Shown here piece by piece: positions 8,940 through 32,390 of a DNA stretch of 64,000 nucleotides; the stretch's first letter is position 1, and each line of letters starts with the position of its first letter. The notes under the pieces were generated by a model, which saw nothing but the letters and a program-made list of their open reading frames with translations, had not been told where the DNA came from and did no database searches. The DNA is taken from assembly GCA_958295855.1 (NCBI GenBank), contig OY282383.1, forward strand, positions 4,958,329-5,022,328. Direction: 5' to 3'. Source of the DNA: an uncultured Poribacteria bacterium. Its GTDB lineage: Bacteria; Poribacteria; WGA-4E; WGA-3G. The translations under genes were made by a program, and so were the position numbers.

Positions 8940-11900
8940 CTATTCAGATTTAAGGGTTGATAACAGGGGGCTGCGGAGTGCCAAGGCAGCCGCAACAGCA
9001 TTTGCAATTATACCAAAGACGAAGATGGAAAGCAAGGTAATTGTGAGGGACAACCATGGCAAAGCGCGGAGATGCTCTAAGATAATTGTGAGGGACAACC
9101 ATGGAAAAGCACGGAGATACCATTGCGAAGTCAGGATTGCTGCAAGCCCCGCGACAATGCCGATAAGCATCCCCACAGTGAGAAGGAAGCAGTTTTCAAG
9201 AAATAGCATCCGCGAGAGGAACTGGCGGCGAAAACCGAAGGCACGCAGGGCAGCCAATTCCCTGCGGCGTTCGATGATATTTCTAAACAGCACGAGTGCT
9301 AACCCGAGGGTGCCGAGCAACACCCCTAAACCGCCGAGGCTCTGAAAAGTGGAGATATAGGTGTTTTCAACTGCCCGGTAGCTTGCCAATCGCACCGATG
9401 CTAACGTAACATCAAATCCGTAATCGCCTAATGTTTTTTCTAACGTTTGTTCTGTCTCTGCCATCAATTCAGGTGGCGTTTTGATGAGGAAAAATTGATA
9501 CCCGCTTTGACTCGGGAAGTATTTCATGAAGTTCTCCTCTGAGATGATGAGCTGGCTTTGGAACAGGCTGTTCTCGAGCGTGCGAAGGTGAAGGCTGAGC
9601 GGTTTTCCAAATTCATCTTGGATGATAAATTCATCGTCAGGATTGTGGTGTAAAATCCAGCGAAGCGACTTTTCATCGCCGATGGCGATAACCTGGCCGC
9701 CGGTATCGGATGCGTTCGGTATTGGCTTCCGCCATGTTCCCGCCCTCCCGCTTCCCCCCAATGCGAATACGGCATCCGAAACGCCTAAAATTTGCGGTTT
9801 CTGGGGCCGATAGAGGTTGAGACAACTCACATCTTCACCGGGAAGTACGCGAAACGGAATCACCTCCGATGCGCTCAGGAGTTGGGAAGCTTTCTCGGAA
9901 AAGCCGAGTTCAAACCGTCCCTCTGGCGTATTCAGGCTGTGGTGTAAAGGGAGCGCGGACTCAGCGACAAAAGCGTACGCTGTCTCTGGAAGGGCATCGT
10001 GCCGATTTGCGCCCACTGCGACGATAATACAGCACGCCAAGCTGACCGTTGTAACACAAGCTTTGCTCCGTTTTGCCTGCCACGCGGCGTTTTTGAGGGA
10101 AAACCGCATCCTGCTCAGCCGCTTTGGTACACGCTGTGAACTTAGCCATTTATTAAAGGCGGACCAACCTACACCGAGAATAAAAAGCGTCGACAGGAGA
10201 AATTGGACAATCGGATGCATAAACCATGTAACAAGCGTATCCAGAATCCATGCACCAACAGGAAAATAGGCTGTTATGACACCTACAACGAATCCGATGA
10301 CGAAAGAAACGAATTGATGGAAATCACCGCTGATCAACAAGAAGAGGCTAAAACCTACCACAAGCAAAATAGTACTAAGTCCGCTCCATCCCTCCGTAAA
10401 GAGCAGACCACCTCCCAGGATACCGAGCATGAATCCACTAACAAAGATACGAATTTTGGCTACCCAACCCCCTGATACATTTGCATTTTGAGGGAGTGGT
10501 ATTATCCCCCGCTTGGCGGGGGTGAATACCCTAAGCGGTGTGGCATTCGCGGCATCAAAATCAGTTTCACCGGCGAGGAGCGCGGCAGTGGAGACACGCC
10601 CTACCCTGACAACAGCCCTAAGGATAGAAATCATAACGACTGCGAATACTACCAGGATACCGATGAGTAAGCTCCACAGACTCGCATGAAATTCTATAAA
10701 GGGTGTGCCGATAGCAGGCAACCACCACGTCTGTAGCCCGAATATCATCAGCTGTGCATACCCGATTGCCAGCAGGCACCCTAAGAGACTACCGATACCA
10801 GCGATGATGCCCCCTTCGTAAAGGAAACGGCGACGGATTTTGGCAAGTGGGTAGCCAACAGCTTGTAAAATGCCGATCTCGCGCGAACGTTGTTCGACAC
10901 CGATACAAAAAAACATCTCAACGAGCCAGGCGACCGCGAGGATTAAAAAAAAGCTTAGACTGCTAAACAACATGCCAAAATCTGTTGCTCCTGCTGATGC
11001 TTCAAGCCCATCCGAGCGAAGCGGTAAAAACTGGAACCCGACCTGTTCTGGCTGAATCTTTTTGAGGAATTCAGTTTCAAAAAGCGCGCGTGTCGCAGGG
11101 ATGTCTGTGCCCGGTGCAGTTTCCAATCGAATAGCGGTGAGTTCTCCGAATCGGTTTTTCCAGAGTCGTTTGCCGGTTTCCAGCGGAACATAAGCTTTCG
11201 GCGTTGCCCCGTATTCATCCCAATATGCCTCATCCTGACTACGAATGAGGGTGTAATCAATCGGAAAAGGAGACTCCCATTCGGACATATCGGCGGTGTC
11301 GTGAATGCCCGGAAATTCAGGGATGATGTCCCTGTCTGCGGCAATACCCTCAATTGGAACAATGCCTTTCATAAGGAATTGTGCCTTTTCAATCGTGTAC
11401 GTTTCACCCGCGTCGACGCGATAGTAGTTAATCTCAACACTATCGCCCACTTTGGCATCAAGCTCTGCCGCTGCCCACGTATTAAGGATAATTTCATCTG
11501 TTCCCCCCGATACCAGCGGTGCTTCAAGTTTGTCAATTGGCAATGCCATGATTGTTGCGTATGGAACAGTTTTGTCGTTAGTCCTTATCGTATTCGCGAG
11601 GTAGGTGAGTGTAGGGAGCACAGGGATGTGGTTTTCAGCCGCAATTGTTAGGGCCGTATCCGACAGGACTGGCTTGAGAAGGTACTGCTGGCTTTGCAAG
11701 TCGAAGTGGTTCTCATGTTCCTGAATGTTTAAGCCGAGTGCCGCTAGCGTCAACTGAAGGTTGTCCGGTGAAAGCGGAGCAACGTCTGCCGTGAATAGGG
11801 CGTTCACTTTGCCAGCTTGGCCAAGTGCTTTTTGCAAAACCGGGAGTGCGATGAACACATTCAAAGGGAGGCTTTGATGTGCGCGCAGACTGAATCTGCC

Positions 11901-25559: not shown

Positions 25560-26470
25560 AAATCGCCGTTACATCTGAATGCGCGGATGATTTTCTCGTC
25601 TGAATCACGGATTATCACGGAGTACACGGATAGACGCGGATTTTAAGAGGGCCTCTGCTCTTCCCCACGTTTGTCCGTGTCATCCGTGCCACTCCGGGGT
25701 TCAGACAATGAACCATTACATTTCCCCATTAATTTTTTGTTTTCACCAGACACCTGTCGCCCCGCTGGGGCTAAACAAGCAGGTAGGCCCGTGGTACTAT
25801 ACACATGTCGCCCCGCTGGGGCTAAAGAGGTTGCGCGCGGGTTATTTTCTTGTCTGAATCGCGGATTATCACAGATTACGCAGATGACGCGGATTTTAAG
25901 AGGGCTCTGCTCTTCCCCACGTTTGTCCGTGTCATCCGTGCCACTCCGGGGTTCAGAAATGAACCATTACATTGCCCCATTAATTTTTTGTTTTCACCAG
26001 ACACCTGTCGCCCCGCTGGGGCTAAAGAGGTTGCGATCGTGGGGTATTTTCTCGCCCATAAGCGACGTGCAGTCAGACAATAAACACCTCATCGCTGCTA
26101 GGCTTGTAGCGTGACGTGACTTTACAAAAACACCCTCTTAAAATCCGCGTTAATCTGCGTAATCCGTGTAATCCGCGATTCAGACAATGAACACCTCCAT
26201 CCCCCCCATTAATTTTTTGTTTTCATGAGACACCTGTCGCCCCGCTGGGGCTAAACAAGCAGGTAGGCCCGTGGTACTATACACCTGTCGCCCCGCTGGG
26301 GCTAAAGAGGTTGCGATCGCGGGTTATTTTCTCGCCCATAAGCGACGTGCAGTCAGACAATAAACACCTCATTGCTGCTAGGCTTGTAGCGTGACGTGAC
26401 TTCACAAAAACACCCTCTTAAAATCCGCGTTTATCCGCGTAATCTGTGTAATCCGCGATTCAGATTAAAT
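25560..26470. repeat. array of composite family-D repeat units (about 230-290 bp each, about 3.5 copies) containing paired 24-nt direct repeats ACATGTCGCCCCGCTGGGGCTAAA
   Basis: gtcgccccgctggggctaaa at about 25755, 25800, 26010, 26235 and 26285. Inter-repeat segment caagcaggtaggcccgtggtactatacac conserved. aaaatccgcg/gattcagacaatgaacc modules. No ORF. Confidence 0.85.
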
Positions 26471-26583: not shown

Positions 26584-26612
26584 TTGACAATGTTAATCTT
26601 TTCGTGTATACT
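26584..26612 (+). promoter_or_regulatory. sigma70-type promoter candidate (TTGACA-17-TATACT)
   Basis: ttgacaatgttaatcttttcgtgtatact, 57 nt upstream of the Uma2 gene. Confidence 0.45.
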
Positions 26613-26668: not shown

Positions 26669-27376
26669 ATGCGAAATCAAAACACGCCTCGACTCCATTA
26701 CGCACCAACAGAAGAGATGGATACCTATCCCGAATCTGATGGGAAACCTATCGCAGAAACGGATCTGCACCGGGATGAACTTCTCAAAACCATTGAGCTA
26801 CTCAGAGAACATTTTAAGGCGCTACCAGATGCCTACGTATCGGGTAACCTGATGATGTATTATACGAAGGGGGAGGCAAGCCACTCAGTATCGCCGGATG
26901 TGTTCGTCAGCTTTGGGGTAGGGCGACATCCCCGGCGCATCTATCGGATGTGGCAAGAGGGAAAGCCTCCGGACTTCGTGCTTGAGTTCTCGAGCAAAGG
27001 GACGTTTCGTAACGATTTGAACGCCAAGAAAACGCTTTATGCGTCGGCACTGGGGGTGCGTGAATACTTCTTATATGATGTGGAACATCTCTATTTACCT
27101 GCACCGCTGCTCGGATTTACGCTGCGGGATGGTGTCTATGTGCCGATTGCTGCGGGTTCAGATGGGGGAATTCTGTCATCAACATTAGGTTTGGCGTTGT
27201 ACTCACTGCCTGCCGGGCTGGGTTTTTATGATGTGCGTGCATCGGAATGGCTGAAGACACCTGCTGAAAAGGAAGCCATCGCCCGGCAACGTGCTGAAGC
27301 TGCCGCACAGCGCGCCGAATCGGAGAACGCACGACTCCGTCAGGAACTTGCACGGTTGAAACGCTTAGAGAATTAG
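26669..27376 (+). CDS. Uma2-family (DUF820) putative restriction-endonuclease-like protein
   Basis: YPESDGKP…ETDLHRDEL…YVSGNLMMYY…PDVFVSFGV…PDFVLEFSS. Coiled-coil Q/A/R-rich tail. Confidence 0.7.
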   Translation: MRNQNTPRLHYAPTEEMDTYPESDGKPIAETDLHRDELLKTIELLREHFKALPDAYVSGNLMMYYTKGEASHSVSPDVFVSFGVGRHPRRIYRMWQEGKPPDFVLEFSSKGTFRNDLNAKKTLYASALGVREYFLYDVEHLYLPAPLLGFTLRDGVYVPIAAGSDGGILSSTLGLALYSLPAGLGFYDVRASEWLKTPAEKEAIARQRAEAAAQRAESENARLRQELARLKRLEN

Positions 27377-27385
27377 GCGTAAGCA

Positions 27386-28195
27386 ATGTCCATCAATACC
27401 ATAGAACAAGACTTTATTAATAAAGTTTCGGCAAAGGTTAGGCTTTCAGCCGATGGCAAAGAACGTTTCCGCGTATTAACTCCCTTCCAGTTTGAAGACG
27501 GAGATCAGTTGGTCATCGTCCTGAAAAAGGTGGGCGATCGGTGGATACTTTCCGACGAAGCACATACTTATATGCACCTCACCTACGAAATTGATGAGAA
27601 ACTTCTTCATAGCGGTACACGCAAGAAGATTATCGCGAAGGCACTCTCCATGTTTGATGTTGATGACCGCGATGGAGAATTAATACTTGATGTGTCCGAT
27701 GGAAATTACGGTGACGCACTGTATGATTTTACCCAAGCACTTCTCAAGATAACTGACGTGTCATACCTGTCAAGAGAACGCGTGCAATCTACATTTATGG
27801 AGGATTTTCGAGCCCTATTGTGTGAAGTTGTCCCGGAGGAGCGGATGCGTTTCGACTGGAGCGACTCAGAGCGAGATGCGGAAAGAAACTACATAGTAGA
27901 TTGTCGAATTAACGGAATGCCGGATCCGCTTTTCGTGTATGCACTCGCTAATAATGATAGGATTCGTGATGCCACGATTGCGCTGCACCAGTTCAAGGAG
28001 TGGGATATCCCGTTCCGTTCTCTGGGCATCTTCAAGAATCGGGGGGCTACCAGTCGCAAGGTACAGGCACGCTTCAGCGATGTGTGCCAGAAGCAATTCC
28101 CCAGCCTCAGCCTAAACGATGCCAGCATCAGAGCATATCTCGTTGATAACATCGGCAGCATTGAGGAGGCGGAAACGAGTTGGCGGATTCAATAA
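27386..28195 (+). CDS. hypothetical protein (possibly DUF1828/DUF1829-like), 10 nt downstream of Uma2 gene
   Basis: Strong coding ORF with no motif I can name. Tight spacing suggests an operon with the Uma2 gene. Confidence 0.4.
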   Translation: MSINTIEQDFINKVSAKVRLSADGKERFRVLTPFQFEDGDQLVIVLKKVGDRWILSDEAHTYMHLTYEIDEKLLHSGTRKKIIAKALSMFDVDDRDGELILDVSDGNYGDALYDFTQALLKITDVSYLSRERVQSTFMEDFRALLCEVVPEERMRFDWSDSERDAERNYIVDCRINGMPDPLFVYALANNDRIRDATIALHQFKEWDIPFRSLGIFKNRGATSRKVQARFSDVCQKQFPSLSLNDASIRAYLVDNIGSIEEAETSWRIQ

Positions 28196-28326: not shown

Positions 28327-29865
28327 ATGAGCGTGATTCGTATTTTCATCAGCAGTGTACAAAGAGAATTCGCACGGGAACGTGAGGTACTACGCGACTA
28401 TCTGCACGGAGATCCGTTGATGCGGCGGTTTTTTGATGTCTTTCTGTTCGAGGATGTCCCAGCGTCGGATCGCCGGCCCGATGCCCTCTATCTGGACGAG
28501 GTCGAGCAATCCGATCTCTACGTGGGGTTGTTCGGCAACGACTACGGAACCGAGGATGAGGACGGAATATCACCGACAGATCGGGAGTTTGAACAAGCAA
28601 CCGCTTCTGGCGTACATCGTCTGATCTTCGTGAAGGGTACGAACGACAGCGTCCGGCATCCGAAGATGACAACCCTGATCAGTAAGGCACAGACCGGACT
28701 GATTCGGAAACGTTTCAACACGCCGGAAGAACTGGTGGCGGGGCTCTATGCGGCGTTAGTCGAGTACCTGGATAGCAAAGATCTCGTTCGTTCTGAGCCC
28801 TTTGACGTGGCACCGTGTACGAAGGCGGCGTTAACCGATCTTGACTCCGGACAAATGGGATGGTTTATCCGCACGGCACGCAGCACTAGGGCGTTCCCGC
28901 TGACTGAAGGGGCATCAGCCGAGGAACTACTCGTACATCTCAACCTCCGAAACGACGGCCGACCGACGAACGCGGCGGTGCTACTGTTCGGGAAGGCACC
29001 ACAGCGCTTTCTGATCTCTTCCGAGGTTAAGTGTGCCCACTTCCACGGAACAGAGGTAGCCAAGCCGATACCGTCCTATCACGTCTACAAAGGCACGGCG
29101 TTTCAACTCGTAGATCAGGCAGTAGACTTCGTACTCAGCAAAATCGCGCTGGCGGTGGGGACGCGGGCGAAAAGCATTCAGGTACCGGTCACCTATGAGA
29201 TTCCAAAAGAAGTGGTGACTGAAGCGATTGTCAATGCCGTAGCCCATCGGGACTACACCAGCAACGCCAGCATACAGGTGATGCTCTTCGCTGACCGGCT
29301 TGAAGTCTGGAATCCCGGCCGACTGCCACCGCCGCTGACGCTAGAGCAATTGCGAGTCGCGCACCCGTCTGTGCCCAGCAACCCTTTGCTTGCCGAATCC
29401 TTATACCTTGCCGCGTACATTGAGCGAATGGGAACAGGAACGTTAGACATGATCCGCCGATGCATCGACGCTGGTTTGCCAGAACCGGAATTCACCGCTA
29501 GCAGTGGATTCATGACAACCCTTCGGCGTGCCACCCCGGCGGCGCAAATGACGGTGCAGCCAGAGTCACAGCCAGAGTCACAGCCAGAGTCACAGCCAGA
29601 GTCGCAGCCAGAGTCGCAGCCAGAGCCACGCCCTGGAGCTCTCAAATCAAGAGTACTCAGCCTGCTGGCAAACGAGCCGATGCAAAAAGCCGAATTGTCC
29701 AGGAACTTGGGACAAAAGGCAGTTTCCGGGCAACTCAACAAAGTTGTCCGGATGCTCCTCGCAGATGAGATGATCGAATACACGCGCCTGAACAAACCCA
29801 ATAGTCGACTACAGAAGTACCGCTTGACGAACAAGGGAAGGGCCTCCCTGATGCATCTGAGATGA
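28327..29865 (+). CDS. DUF4062 + AlbA_2/Schlafen-like + HATPase_c_4 + C-terminal wHTH protein
   Basis: N-terminus IFISSVQREF…LYVGLFGNDYG…HRLIFVKG (DUF4062-like Rossmann). Middle and C-terminal regions match the 'RecG-like putative DNA-binding/ATPase' architecture. (QPES)6 linker. Terminal wHTH. Confidence 0.55.
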   Translation: MSVIRIFISSVQREFAREREVLRDYLHGDPLMRRFFDVFLFEDVPASDRRPDALYLDEVEQSDLYVGLFGNDYGTEDEDGISPTDREFEQATASGVHRLIFVKGTNDSVRHPKMTTLISKAQTGLIRKRFNTPEELVAGLYAALVEYLDSKDLVRSEPFDVAPCTKAALTDLDSGQMGWFIRTARSTRAFPLTEGASAEELLVHLNLRNDGRPTNAAVLLFGKAPQRFLISSEVKCAHFHGTEVAKPIPSYHVYKGTAFQLVDQAVDFVLSKIALAVGTRAKSIQVPVTYEIPKEVVTEAIVNAVAHRDYTSNASIQVMLFADRLEVWNPGRLPPPLTLEQLRVAHPSVPSNPLLAESLYLAAYIERMGTGTLDMIRRCIDAGLPEPEFTASSGFMTTLRRATPAAQMTVQPESQPESQPESQPESQPESQPEPRPGALKSRVLSLLANEPMQKAELSRNLGQKAVSGQLNKVVRMLLADEMIEYTRLNKPNSRLQKYRLTNKGRASLMHLR

Positions 29866-29911
29866 CTTGGCAACAGCAACGTTGAGGGACCGGAAAAAAG
29901 GATTGTAATTC

Positions 29912-31486
29912 ATGATTGAAAGACGGTTAAGAGAACTCTGGGAAAATTTGCAAAGCAAAAAACCGCATCTACCCCATTTTCTCTCGGAGATTTACTTAGA
30001 CGGTATTCGTGGACTTCATAACTTGCGGGTGTTGTTTGACTATCCTGTGAGTGTTATTGCAGGCGGAAATGCTACCGGAAAGTCAACGGTGCTTTTTGCA
30101 GCTGCCTGCGCCTATAAGGTGCCAGGAGCAGGGGTTAAGGACTTCGTGCCCTCCACACTGTTTCCAGATTTTCGCCCTAAATTCGGTGAGCGCCAGGATA
30201 TTCAGCAAAACATCACTATGGAATTCAATTATCAGACTCGAGACGGTATGCGTTCCATGCGATGGCGACGATCCAAGGGGTGGAACCGTAGTTTTTTCGG
30301 CCGCAAAAACGCGAGCCAGCCGGAGCGGCAGATCTATCTTAGAACACTCAGCAACCTAAGTAACCCTTCTGAGGTGCGCGGTGTTCTCAGCATGTCGCGC
30401 CTAAAATCTGAACTGCAAGAAATACCCATGACACCATCACAGATTGAGTTCGTACATCAAATGCTCCCCTTCAGGTACTCGGAGGTCGTCGATCTGTCTA
30501 GCGGTAACAAAAATCTTCTCTTTGCTGCCCAGGAAGGCGGGGCCACTTACTCCGAACTGCACATGGCTGCTGGTGAGCGCGCCCTATTGCGGTTGTCACA
30601 AGAGATCACGCAACTTGATGGCGCGCTCGTTCTGATTGATGAAGTGGAAGCAGGTTTGCACCCTTGGGTACAGCAACTTCTCATGTTACATTTACAGCAA
30701 CTGGCACTGCGCAACGACCTCCAAATCATCGTAACCTCCCACAGCCCGGTCGTCCTTGACTCAGTCTCTGCCCGCGGGCGTATTTTTCTTGACCGGGACG
30801 AAGCATCAGGCAAGGTTGTTGTCCGCCCACCCTATCGCGATGTAATTCAGAATGCCCTCTATGGACGCTCCAGTGAAGTGCTTAAACTGCTCTGTGAAGA
30901 CGAGATCGCTGAAGGTATTTTAAAAGGTGTGTTGGATTTGCTGTTATCCAGAGAAAGAATTAAGTGGGAATCTGTCCATATCGGGCGCGACACGGGAGCG
31001 AGTGAATTTCCTATGCACGCTCGTGCTTTAGAAAAATTTGGTCAGCTTCAAAACACCATCTTCATTCTCGACGGTGACCAGCGTGATGGTGAAATCGCAC
31101 ACAAAATACAGGCAACTGTAAGACATAGTGTCAGCATCCCAGTATTGTTCCTGCCCGGTAGCGGGGCACCGGAAAGTTGGGCCTGGGAAAAACTGCAACA
31201 AATTTCTGACGCTGATGCAGAGCAATTGGGCACCAATCTTGGCGTTCTGTCCAACTTAATGGATCAATTGGATGCTACTTATGCCTCAGTGTCCGACTCA
31301 CCAGAAACAGCGAAAATTAAATTTCGTACCCTATCCGAACACTTAAGTAGAGAGGCACCGGAGGTCTGCCGAATCCTCGCACGGTTAGAGGCTGAACGAA
31401 AAGAGAGTGACCTCCGGCCTTTCGTGGAAAAATTGCTGCAAATTTTGTTGCAGTGGCGGGGTAATCCGAAGGGAACAGTGGTATGA
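29912..31486 (+). CDS. OLD-family-like protein: ABC/AAA_21-type ATPase with C-terminal Toprim-like nuclease motifs
   Basis: Walker A GGNATGKST, Walker B LVLIDEVEAGLHP, IIVTSHSP. C-terminal LLCEDEIAEG and FILDGDQRDGE resemble the Toprim E and DxD motifs. 46 nt after the preceding gene. Confidence 0.55.
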   Translation: MIERRLRELWENLQSKKPHLPHFLSEIYLDGIRGLHNLRVLFDYPVSVIAGGNATGKSTVLFAAACAYKVPGAGVKDFVPSTLFPDFRPKFGERQDIQQNITMEFNYQTRDGMRSMRWRRSKGWNRSFFGRKNASQPERQIYLRTLSNLSNPSEVRGVLSMSRLKSELQEIPMTPSQIEFVHQMLPFRYSEVVDLSSGNKNLLFAAQEGGATYSELHMAAGERALLRLSQEITQLDGALVLIDEVEAGLHPWVQQLLMLHLQQLALRNDLQIIVTSHSPVVLDSVSARGRIFLDRDEASGKVVVRPPYRDVIQNALYGRSSEVLKLLCEDEIAEGILKGVLDLLLSRERIKWESVHIGRDTGASEFPMHARALEKFGQLQNTIFILDGDQRDGEIAHKIQATVRHSVSIPVLFLPGSGAPESWAWEKLQQISDADAEQLGTNLGVLSNLMDQLDATYASVSDSPETAKIKFRTLSEHLSREAPEVCRILARLEAERKESDLRPFVEKLLQILLQWRGNPKGTVV

Positions 31487-31610
31487 GCACCGGTGGCGAA
31501 AAGGAGAAACGCACACAGGAGCGCGTCCTCAATTGGCGGTATTGAATGACGCGCAAGCAGCGGTGCCGGGCAGCCATTCCGCCCTACAACCCACAAAACT
31601 CCTACCATAC

Positions 31611-32390
31611 CTACCATTTCTCTTTTTCTTTCTCCTCCCCCTTGTTAAGGAACGGACTGAGCAGATCGATCGGGATGGGGAAGACAACGGTTGAGTTCTT
31701 CTCCGCGCTGACTTCTACCAAAGCTTGAAGAAATCGGAGTTGCACGGCAGTCGGGGTTTTACTCAGAATTTCAGCGGCATCCGTTAAAACCGCGGCGGAC
31801 TCGAACTCTCCCTCGGCGTGTGTGACTTTGGCGCGACGTTCGCGTTCCGCTTCTGCCTGTTTCGCCATGGCGCGTTGCATTTCAGCAGGCAGATCTACGT
31901 GCTTGATTTCCATCGCCAGCACTCCAATTCCCCAGTGTTCACAATGTTTTTTGATAATTTCCTCAAGGTCCTGATTGAGTTTTTCGCGTTCCGAGAGCAG
32001 ATCATCTAGCTCAGCGCGTCCGAGGACACTGCGGAGCGTGGTTTGCGCAATTTGGGAAATAGCAAAGCCGAAGTCTTCGACCTCAATCACCGCCTTATCT
32101 GGTTCAGTCACCCTAAAGGTGAGCACTGCGTTGACGCTCACGGAGACGTTGTCTTTTGTGATTACATCTTGGGGGGTGACATCGTTGACGATGACGCGGA
32201 GGCTGATACGTTGCATCCGTTCGATCCAGAAGGGTATCAGGAAGACGAGGCCGGGACCGCGGGTGCCGGTTAAGCGGCCCAGGCGGAAGATGACAGCGCG
32301 TTCGTACTCTTTGAGGATGCGTATACTTGTCGCAAGCAGAATGATAATTACAATCGCAATCGCGAAATAGGTTGGTTGAATTTCTGGCAT
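31611..32390 (-). CDS. SPFH/band-7 (stomatin/HflC-like) membrane protein
   Basis: N-terminal TM helix. Full-length stomatin-like core ([10 protein letters not shown]…, coiled-coil [10 protein letters not shown]). Confidence 0.85.

Follow-up and report, generated by a model that had tools for sequence, protein, structure and literature searches.

HEC-04 (Hma-embedded candidate 04) combines an ABC ATPase and an OLD-like TOPRIM domain in one polypeptide, and this one gene is enough to protect E. coli (Payne et al. 2024, bioRxiv 10.1101/2024.01.29.577857). The defence depends on the Walker A lysine as well as on the E/DxD triad: the mutants K62A and E319A/D375A/D377A are inactive. Another domain, DUF4062, was renamed NIR and is a TIR-like NADase that depends on a conserved glutamate. 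It serves as the effector in Swarozyc, Evangelion, NIR-Avs2, Vulcan, and Vesta (10.64898/2026.05.01.722283, 10.64898/2026.06.25.731849, 10.64898/2026.09.04.749371). Here, we describe two neighbouring genes that are related to these proteins. They lie in a 64,000-nucleotide stretch of DNA from an uncultured Poribacteria bacterium (GenBank assembly GCA_958295855.1, contig OY282383.1, positions 4,958,329 to 5,022,328), which we will call the window; all coordinates are positions in this stretch. Gene 1 (28327..29865, + strand) encodes 512 amino acids and gene 2 (29912..31486, + strand) encodes 524 amino acids.

An earlier reading of the DNA letters, without database searches (the sequence-only reading), had proposed that these two genes form a two-gene defence cassette. 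It had the open reading frames (ORFs) right: they are co-directional and 46 nt apart, at exactly the coordinates that it gave. Each gene has hundreds of homologues with 74-87% identity (the named ones are from Candidatus Poribacteria), and both are real genes. The cassette itself did not hold up. Gene 1 was missing from the vicinity of gene 2 in 62 of 80 loci, gene 2 was missing from 79 of 80 loci with gene 1, and in 8 loci gene 1 had decayed beside an intact gene 2. We think, with a probability of about 0.72, that these are two independent single-gene anti-phage modules that are neighbours by chance, as cargo of a decayed type I restriction-modification (R-M) operon in sponge-associated Poribacteria. 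The proposed new two-gene system is not supported, and if the two genes had been cloned together as a single unit, their independent activities would have been confounded.

Gene 2 belongs to the HEC-04 family

Judging from its sequence, gene 2 adds a member to a family that is already known and tested. When we compared the protein to the models in PADLOC, the best of 149 matches was HEC-04 (PDLC04149; E = 6.6e-41, 138 bits). The match spans residues 17-480 of gene 2 and positions 20-456 of the 494 in the profile, which is 88% of the length of each. The second-best model was the retron type I-B ATPase-Toprim protein (E = 3.3e-22, 77 bits). HEC-04 was also the top match for the N-terminal 199 residues and for the C-terminal 225 residues when these were searched singly. 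The family is compact: a search of 1.84 billion representatives found 158 at E ≤ 1e-30. The sequence-only reading had not recognised a described system here, yet gene 2 matches one that is named and was tested as a single gene.

The N-terminal part of gene 2 is an ABC ATPase head (29960..30811, + strand), as indicated by Pfam, by profile searches against the PDB, and by conservation. Its Walker A lysine is K57 (codon 30080-30082), Walker B is D243/E244 (30638-30643), and H277 is encoded at 30740-30742. Pfam matched ABC-type ATPase families alone (AAA_21, AAA_15, AAA_23, SMC_N, and DUF2813), and the PDB matches for the head were PtuA, the OLD nuclease 6p74, AriA, and Rad50. Residues 321-517 (30872..31462, + strand) form a Toprim domain and a helical C-terminal region, with E329 (codon 30896-30898), D387 (31070-31072), and D389 (31076-31078). 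The AlphaFold model is confident from about residue 321, and structure comparison gives a Toprim fold, so that gene 2 has a C-terminal TOPRIM with an E/DxD metal site, as in HEC-04 and in Bp OLD (6NK8). To check the catalytic residues, we aligned 32 full-length relatives (24-66% identical to gene 2). K57, within the Walker A sequence GGNATGKS, is invariant, and G51, G56, D243/E244, H277, E329 (in CEDE), and D387-G-D389 are invariant or nearly so. The layout of an ABC ATPase followed by an OLD/GajA-type Toprim, which had been read from motifs, is thus borne out.

Like HEC-04, gene 2 is one polypeptide with an ABC ATPase and an OLD-like TOPRIM, it has the conserved Walker A lysine and E...DxD metal site, and its family is embedded in DNA-modification-based defence operons. 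The HEC-04 copy that was tested in E. coli belongs to an Hma system, while the relatives of gene 2 are instead in type I R-M operons or alone. The layout and fold of gene 2 are also shared by class 1 OLD proteins (P2 Old and Thermus scotoductus OLD, 6p74), class 2 OLD proteins (6nk8 and 6njx), Gabija GajA, PARIS AriA/AriB, and the retron type I-B ATPase-Toprim protein, but for GajA and AriA the similarity in sequence is restricted to the ATPase motifs. Also, unlike Gabija, PARIS, and retron I-B, gene 2 has no GajB, AriB, or retron reverse transcriptase or non-coding RNA nearby, and none of its neighbours (a Uma2 gene, a DUF1828 gene, gene 1, and a Band_7 gene) is a cognate partner of those systems. 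The sequence-only reading was right that the usual partners are absent, as no neighbour resembles UvrD, AriB, or a reverse transcriptase. Its suggestion that gene 1 takes their place is not supported. By analogy to the literature, the ATPase head of gene 2 might sense infection or use ATP, and the Toprim domain, with E329 and D387xD389 as metal ligands, would then cut nucleic acid.

Gene 2 is found in Poribacteria, Acidobacteriota, Chloroflexota, Spirochaetia, Alpha- and Gammaproteobacteria, Binatia, Latescibacterota, Entotheonella, Rhodothermales, and Candidatus Synechococcus spongiarum, among other groups. Of the taxa named here, several live as symbionts of sponges. Orthologues with 63-71% amino-acid identity occur in more than 10 phylum- or class-level lineages (L031-L085 among the loci that we numbered), each in a different context. 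From the sequences, this spread looks like recent cross-phylum transfer, and identities of about 65-70% across more than 10 bacterial phyla point to the transfer of a single defence gene.

We also considered if the protein encoded by DUF1828, which often lies upstream of gene 2, could be its true partner, as in the PADLOC candidate system PDC-M24. We rejected this because neither half of gene 2 matches PDC-M24A and because DUF1828 is absent from nearly all of the loci outside Poribacteria.

Gene 1 has a new architecture within the NIR class

From its ORF, its Pfam matches, and its homologues, gene 1 comprises a NIR/DUF4062 domain, a middle region, a GHKL-like HATPase_c_4 domain, a repeat linker, and a winged helix-turn-helix (wHTH). 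The sequence-only reading had proposed most of these parts, and it had viewed both genes as defence genes, which our analysis supports.

The N-terminal domain (residues 1-150; 28327..28776, + strand) is TIR-like. Pfam's DUF4062 (PF13271) matches residues 5-91 with E = 1.3e-19 and covers the whole model (positions 1-82), and all 33 of the homologues that we checked match this model as well. A profile of the gene 1 family matched the solved structure of the DUF4062 domain of KpSwz (E = 3.4e-7), with the match ending at profile position 171. The structural model of the N-terminus is confident, and Foldseek matched it to the CMP N-glycosidase BcmB, TIR-STING, DNPH1, the TIR domain of SARM1, and nucleoside deoxyribosyltransferases, all with probability 1.0 and target TM-scores of 0.5-0.7. 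This is the same range of matches that was published for NIR (2026 DUF4062/NIR preprints). So, the DUF4062-like domain that had been noticed in the sequence is present, with a fold like that of TIR domains and nucleoside deoxyribosyltransferases.

Across the 33 homologues (55-77% identity), the motif S82-x-T84-x-x-E87-F/Y is kept, and E87 is invariant. In the window, this motif is SPTxxEF, and the codon for E87 is at 28585-28587. E87-F88 also fits the published E87-Y88 motif of Evangelion. Based on its conservation and on the Evangelion motif, E87 is the putative catalytic residue.

The middle region and HATPase_c_4 (residues 151-396; 28777..29514, + strand) have Bergerat-type motifs, E299xxxN303, D323, and G369xG371, that are invariant. 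Pfam's HATPase_c_4 matches residues 314-396 (E = 3.9e-19), and PDB entry 3lmm matches the family profile (E = 2.6e-6). The linker that follows was described as (QPES)6; we find a tandem repeat of 12 nt × 6.1 (29557..29629, + strand; identified with TRF). It has expanded in the window: the consensus of the homologues has a single QPES. The C-terminal wHTH (residues 442-501; 29650..29829, + strand) is of the Fic-like_C type, with a Pfam match at E = 2e-6 and, using the family profile, a match to the C-terminus of a Fic protein (PDB 4rgl) at E = 4e-13. Residues 441-510 are modelled with a pLDDT of 81-90. HATPase_c_4 and the terminal wHTH are therefore as the sequence-only reading had them.

The sequence-only reading had also placed a Schlafen/AlbA_2 domain in gene 1, and this we reject, given the results from Pfam, from profile searches against the PDB, and from comparison to a true paralogue. 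With a cut-off as permissive as E ≤ 5, SLFN_AlbA_2 (PF04326) still matched neither gene 1 nor a single one of its 33 homologues. The true AlbA_2 + HATPase_c_4 paralogue (L013:7104-8393) has its AlbA_2 domain at residues 39-150. In a BLASTP comparison, its alignment with gene 1 begins no earlier than residue 212 (residues 212-359 against 219-363, an offset of 7), with 29% identity over 153 residues, which implies that DUF4062 holds the place of AlbA_2 in gene 1. Similarly, the match to PADLOC's pAgo model PDLC02394 begins at residue 54 in the paralogue, but only at residue 160 in gene 1.

The paralogue in L013 lies directly upstream of a gene for a NIR-HATPase_c_4 protein. In L126 and L152, the upstream sequence resembles the middle region of gene 1 (32% identity). 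A paralogue of the L013 type is a possible donor or recipient in a domain swap.

Several known families share parts of this architecture. Like gene 1, Swarozyc, Evangelion (Eva01-04), Vulcan, and NIR-Avs2 have an N-terminal DUF4062 TIR-like domain ahead of a variable C-terminal part (their "AUX" sensor), and they are single genes that are mobile and tied to defence islands or plasmids. Their conserved catalytic glutamate may have its counterpart in E87 of gene 1. The putative AUX of gene 1 is different: a middle region, a GHKL-like HATPase_c_4 domain, and a Fic-like_C wHTH. It fits none of the AUX types of Swarozyc, Evangelion, Vulcan, or Vesta, which are a portal-binding HTH/winged domain, the short Eva type, HEAT repeats, and an alkaline phosphatase partner. 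Gene 1 has no HEAT repeats and no phosphatase gene beside it. Where Evangelion has a Q/W/E motif, gene 1 has R-P-D instead. And in contrast to the named DUF4062/NIR systems, gene 1 is often embedded in type I R-M operons. The Schlafen-AlbA_2/HATPase_c_4/wHTH proteins (COG2865 type; 3lmm) have the middle region and HATPase_c_4 in common with gene 1, followed by a wHTH, but they carry AlbA_2 where gene 1 has DUF4062. PADLOC's pAgo and Aga_SIR2-PNTD1-PNTD2 models cover only residues 157-393 of gene 1. In Aga_SIR2-PNTD1-PNTD2, the positions that align to the middle/HATPase_c_4 region of gene 1 (309-541) lie behind the part that is named SIR2, so this protein has a SIR2 NADase ahead of the same module, which is a design analogous to that of gene 1. 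Unlike for these proteins, there is no Argonaute gene near gene 1.

None of the three DUF4062 preprints cited above mentions HATPase_c_4, AlbA, Schlafen, or RecG, and nothing useful on the architecture of gene 1 came up when we searched the literature for PNTD1, COG2865, or HATPase_c_4 together with defence. Among the candidate systems in PADLOC-DB 2.0.0, no model matches gene 1. By its domain content, then, gene 1 brings a new architecture to the NIR effector class, and this architecture is the only novelty of the locus. It is well conserved and widespread: hundreds of homologues with 54-82% identity share the three Pfam domains, and they are found in sponge symbionts, sediments, bioreactors, and on conjugative plasmids of Legionella. 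Gene 1 would extend the NIR NADase family by a new type of sensor, and it illustrates domain swapping with Schlafen-type proteins and with SIR2 proteins that are associated with Argonautes.

We predict that gene 1 is a single-protein NADase defence gene, with sensor and effector of the DUF4062/NIR class on one chain. By analogy to Swarozyc, Evangelion, Avs2-NIR, Vulcan, and Vesta, hydrolysis of NAD+ would lead to abortive infection. The middle region, the GHKL-like HATPase_c_4 domain, and the wHTH would have the role of the variable AUX sensor: they would probably bind a nucleic acid or a protein of the phage and drive oligomerisation, which would switch the NADase on.

We noticed some unusual homologues of gene 1. 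On one metagenome contig, two of them are in tandem (L136:8001-9485 and 9733-11283). On the pLPP-type plasmids of Legionella (about 130 kb, e.g. NC_006365.1), the annotation divides the homologue into two ORFs ("DUF4062 domain-containing protein" and "ATP-binding protein"), and the match also comes in two segments; it is either frameshifted or naturally split. A variant of 660 amino acids with a longer linker (L088/L089:8001-9983) has IS1595 and IS66 transposases, a DruA gene, and fragments of hsdR on its flanks; the island that holds it is heavily rearranged. In IMG/VR, there is just one close relative of gene 1 and no relative of gene 2, so we rejected the idea that these genes are carried by phages.

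Both genes were probably cargo of a type I R-M operon

The sequence-only reading had suggested that the genes lie in a defence island, and the sister genomes bear this out: they have a type I R-M operon with embedded cargo. In the long assemblies from Poribacteria, the order of genes is HsdM-HsdS-[cargo]-HsdR-YgjP-(Band_7). The cargo varies. For example, it is DUF5677 and gene 2 in L005; DUF6932, DUF1828, and gene 2 in L002; and ThsB_TIR, DUF1828, gene 2, and gene 1 in L004. The slot between hsdS and hsdR is thus a site where DUF1828, DUF6932, ThsB-TIR, DUF5677, the NIR protein, and the HEC-04-like protein are shuffled.

In the window, most of the operon is gone. Using blastn, we found that collinearity with L011, L018, L010, and L002 continues for about 45 nt past the stop codon of gene 2, into the start of their hsdR genes. 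After a jump of about 3.9 kb, it picks up again at the Band_7 gene. Because collinearity jumps in this way, we conclude that those 3.9 kb, with hsdR and ygjP, were deleted. The remnant is a stub of the 5' end of hsdR (31483..31531, + strand). In a tblastn search with residues 1-16 of HsdR, 10 of 16 residues were identical at the stub (about 48 nt, straight after the stop codon of gene 2). This stub is all that we found: the window has no remnants of hsdM, hsdS, or ygjP. The Band_7 (SPFH) gene (31611..32390, - strand; identified with Pfam) is a conserved chromosomal flank of the island and occupies the same place, 3' of ygjP, in L002, L005, L011, L018, and L029.

The two genes would thus both be cargo of an embedding slot, in an operon that decayed by the deletion of hsdR and ygjP and that has lost hsdM and hsdS. 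The locus is a defence island with two autonomous modules, in which embedded cargo has outlived its R-M system. It is a clear natural case of "guilt by embedding," and it indicates that cargo can persist after the R-M system that housed it is lost.

Could the cargo depend on the R-M system? Because gene 1 is often nested between hsdS and hsdR, it might guard type I restriction. In a broad version of this idea, gene 1 represents an unrecognised and widespread family in which a NIR NADase replaces the AlbA_2 head of the COG2865-type GHKL/wHTH module and depletes NAD+ when a phage disables or evades Hsd; in Poribacteria, it might also be coupled to the adjacent HEC-04-type nuclease. We consider this version doubtful. 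A narrower and unlikely version is that one or both genes are guards like PrrC, which work only with the type I Hsd complex, for example when an anti-restriction protein from a phage disables it. As the window has lost hsdMSR, its copies of the genes would then be non-functional relics. There is a precedent in PrrC/EcoprrI, an anticodon nuclease in an hsd operon, where a defence gene is likewise nested among type I R-M genes, but PrrC has no sequence relationship to gene 1 and has only the class of ABC ATPase in common with gene 2. The positions of the genes fit the idea. In Poribacteria, both lie between hsdS and hsdR; among loci with gene 1 from unrelated metagenomes, HsdS or HsdM ends less than 400 nt upstream in 24 of the 51 with enough upstream sequence, and HsdR is within 1.2 kb downstream in 16 of the 45 with enough downstream sequence; and the window keeps only the stub of hsdR. 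On the other hand, 54 of the 80 genomes with gene 2 have no Hsd gene nearby, gene 1 is alone on Legionella plasmids, and HEC-04 was active when cloned without the surrounding system (Payne et al. 2024). Also, both ORFs in the window are intact and have all of the conserved residues, which argues against relics. Because there are so many stand-alone copies, dependence on the Hsd complex seems unlikely from the genomes.

The two genes are usually found apart

To see how often the genes occur together, we used two sets of loci. For gene 2, we took one genome per GTDB species, which gave 80 loci (63-87% identity), and we looked for gene 1 within 10 kb. For gene 1, we took 80 metagenome loci with full-length homologues (54-78% identity) from sediments, bioreactors, lakes, and soils.

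Near gene 2, gene 1 was intact in 10 loci and present only as fragments in the 8 mentioned above, with none within 10 kb in the remaining 62. All 10 of the intact cases are in Poribacteria. In L002, a relic of gene 1 of 135 nt lies beside an intact gene 2. In the roughly 55 loci outside Poribacteria, we found no recurrent neighbour of gene 2, and the contexts are unrelated. On this genomic evidence, gene 2, like HEC-04, appears to act without an obligate partner. We also clustered the ORFs within 5 kb of gene 2 in all 80 loci. This gave only R-M genes and DUF1828, in Poribacteria, so we rejected a conserved partner outside that phylum. Conversely, just one of the 80 gene 1 loci has gene 2 (L091), and among the 29 whose flanks are both at least 1.6 kb long, none has gene 2. 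Either gene can fill the R-M slot alone: L090 is HsdM-HsdS-gene1-HsdR, and gene 2 is alone between hsdS and hsdR in L005, L007, L012, and L023. Conjugative plasmids of Legionella carry a lone homologue of gene 1 ("ATP-binding protein"; 55% identity, 100% coverage) beside partition genes. Co-location in related genomes had been set beforehand as a test that could refute the pairing. For genomes outside Poribacteria, the pairing fails this test.

It seems quite unlikely that the genes form an obligate two-gene system, with the DUF4062/HATPase_c_4/wHTH protein as a sensor or regulator and the OLD-like ATPase-Toprim protein as the effector, or the reverse. Besides the two-way dissociation and the decay of gene 1 beside intact gene 2, the pair is confined to one phylum, whereas gene 2 spans many phyla and gene 1 spans many habitats. 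HEC-04 works alone (Payne et al. 2024), and several DUF4062 systems act as single proteins (2026 preprints). The case for the pair is that the genes are co-directional, with a gap of 46 nt that has no terminator-like site, and are adjacent wherever both are intact. Since they occur in two orders, the juxtaposition could have arisen, or been kept, more than once. Gene 1 precedes gene 2 in the window, L011, L013, and L018, and gene 2 precedes gene 1 in at least 10 loci. However, with just 1-5 cargo genes in an R-M slot, two of them can be expected to lie side by side by chance, and their adjacency is weak evidence for coupling. Still less does gene 1 look like a transcription regulator or a RecG-like DNA-binding housekeeping protein rather than an immune gene: databases do name it "transcriptional regulator" or "ATP-dependent DNA helicase RecG" and it has a wHTH, but this is very unlikely given that it has no helicase domain, that its N-terminus has the NADase fold of DUF4062/NIR with the conserved glutamate, that it is mobile and occurs patchily, both in R-M operons and on plasmids, and that defence proteins associated with Argonautes (PADLOC) have this middle/HATPase_c_4 module joined to SIR2.

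Some observations do weigh against two independent modules with the functions that we propose. Every locus in which both genes are intact has them side by side, separated by about 13-110 nt; this holds for either order and across at least 10 species. A scan of the gap between the genes in the window found no terminator-like site on the + strand. A functional coupling that is specific to the Poribacteria lineage is conceivable. The AF2 models, which were built from shallow alignments, are poor for residues 225-436 of gene 1 and for the ATPase head of gene 2, and the role of the HATPase_c_4/wHTH module as a sensor is something that we purely infer. Finally, HMMER places the catalytic glutamate of KpSwz (E97) opposite position 85 of gene 1, not opposite E87. 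Position 85 (codon 28579-28581) is Asp in the window and is Glu, His, Gln, or other residues elsewhere in the family. Because the wider family has His or Gln at this position, the Asp is probably harmless, although it would matter if position 85, and not 87, is catalytic. We rejected the idea that D85 is an inactivating loss of the catalytic glutamate, as position 85 is naturally variable and E87 is invariant. (In the closest relatives of the window's copy, which is to say in more than 90% of the Poribacteria clade, position 85 is Glu.)

Neighbouring genes and repeats

Two other genes precede gene 1 on the same strand. The first gene of this co-directional array, at 26669..27376 (+ strand), encodes a putative endonuclease of the Uma2 family (Pfam Uma2, E = 8.5e-17), as the sequence-only reading had it. 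The second, at 27386..28195 (+ strand), had been called an unknown gene. It is there, and we can now identify it as a DUF1828 gene (Pfam, E = 1.5e-24) that matches the PADLOC candidate PDC-M24B (E = 1.2e-20). A promoter scan found a promoter-like site before the Uma2 gene, at 26584-26612 (11/12 matches). Together with the lack of a terminator-like site between gene 1 and gene 2, this makes it possible that all four genes (Uma2, DUF1828, gene 1, and gene 2) are co-transcribed. Under our preferred explanation, gene 1 and gene 2 may well share a transcript, but neither would need the other.

DUF1828 is a recurrent cargo of the R-M slot: it is present in 20 related loci, usually upstream of gene 2. 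Examples that we noted, besides 27386-28195 in the window, are L007, L009, L014, L023, L024, L071, and L087. It is often preceded by an ORF of about 156 amino acids that has a weak match to DUF6978 and no match in PADLOC; in the window, the Uma2 gene is in its place. This ORF and DUF1828 could be a separate two-gene candidate system.

A repeat array was said to border the region, and we found a repeat family there, at 25581-26464. A unit is about 250-280 nt long; 3-4 copies are direct, and some segments are inverted. Fragments of 44-76 nt of this repeat recur at the 3' end of hsdS in L011, L018, L002, and L013. It may be an element that resembles miniature inverted-repeat transposable elements and that marks the boundary of the island.

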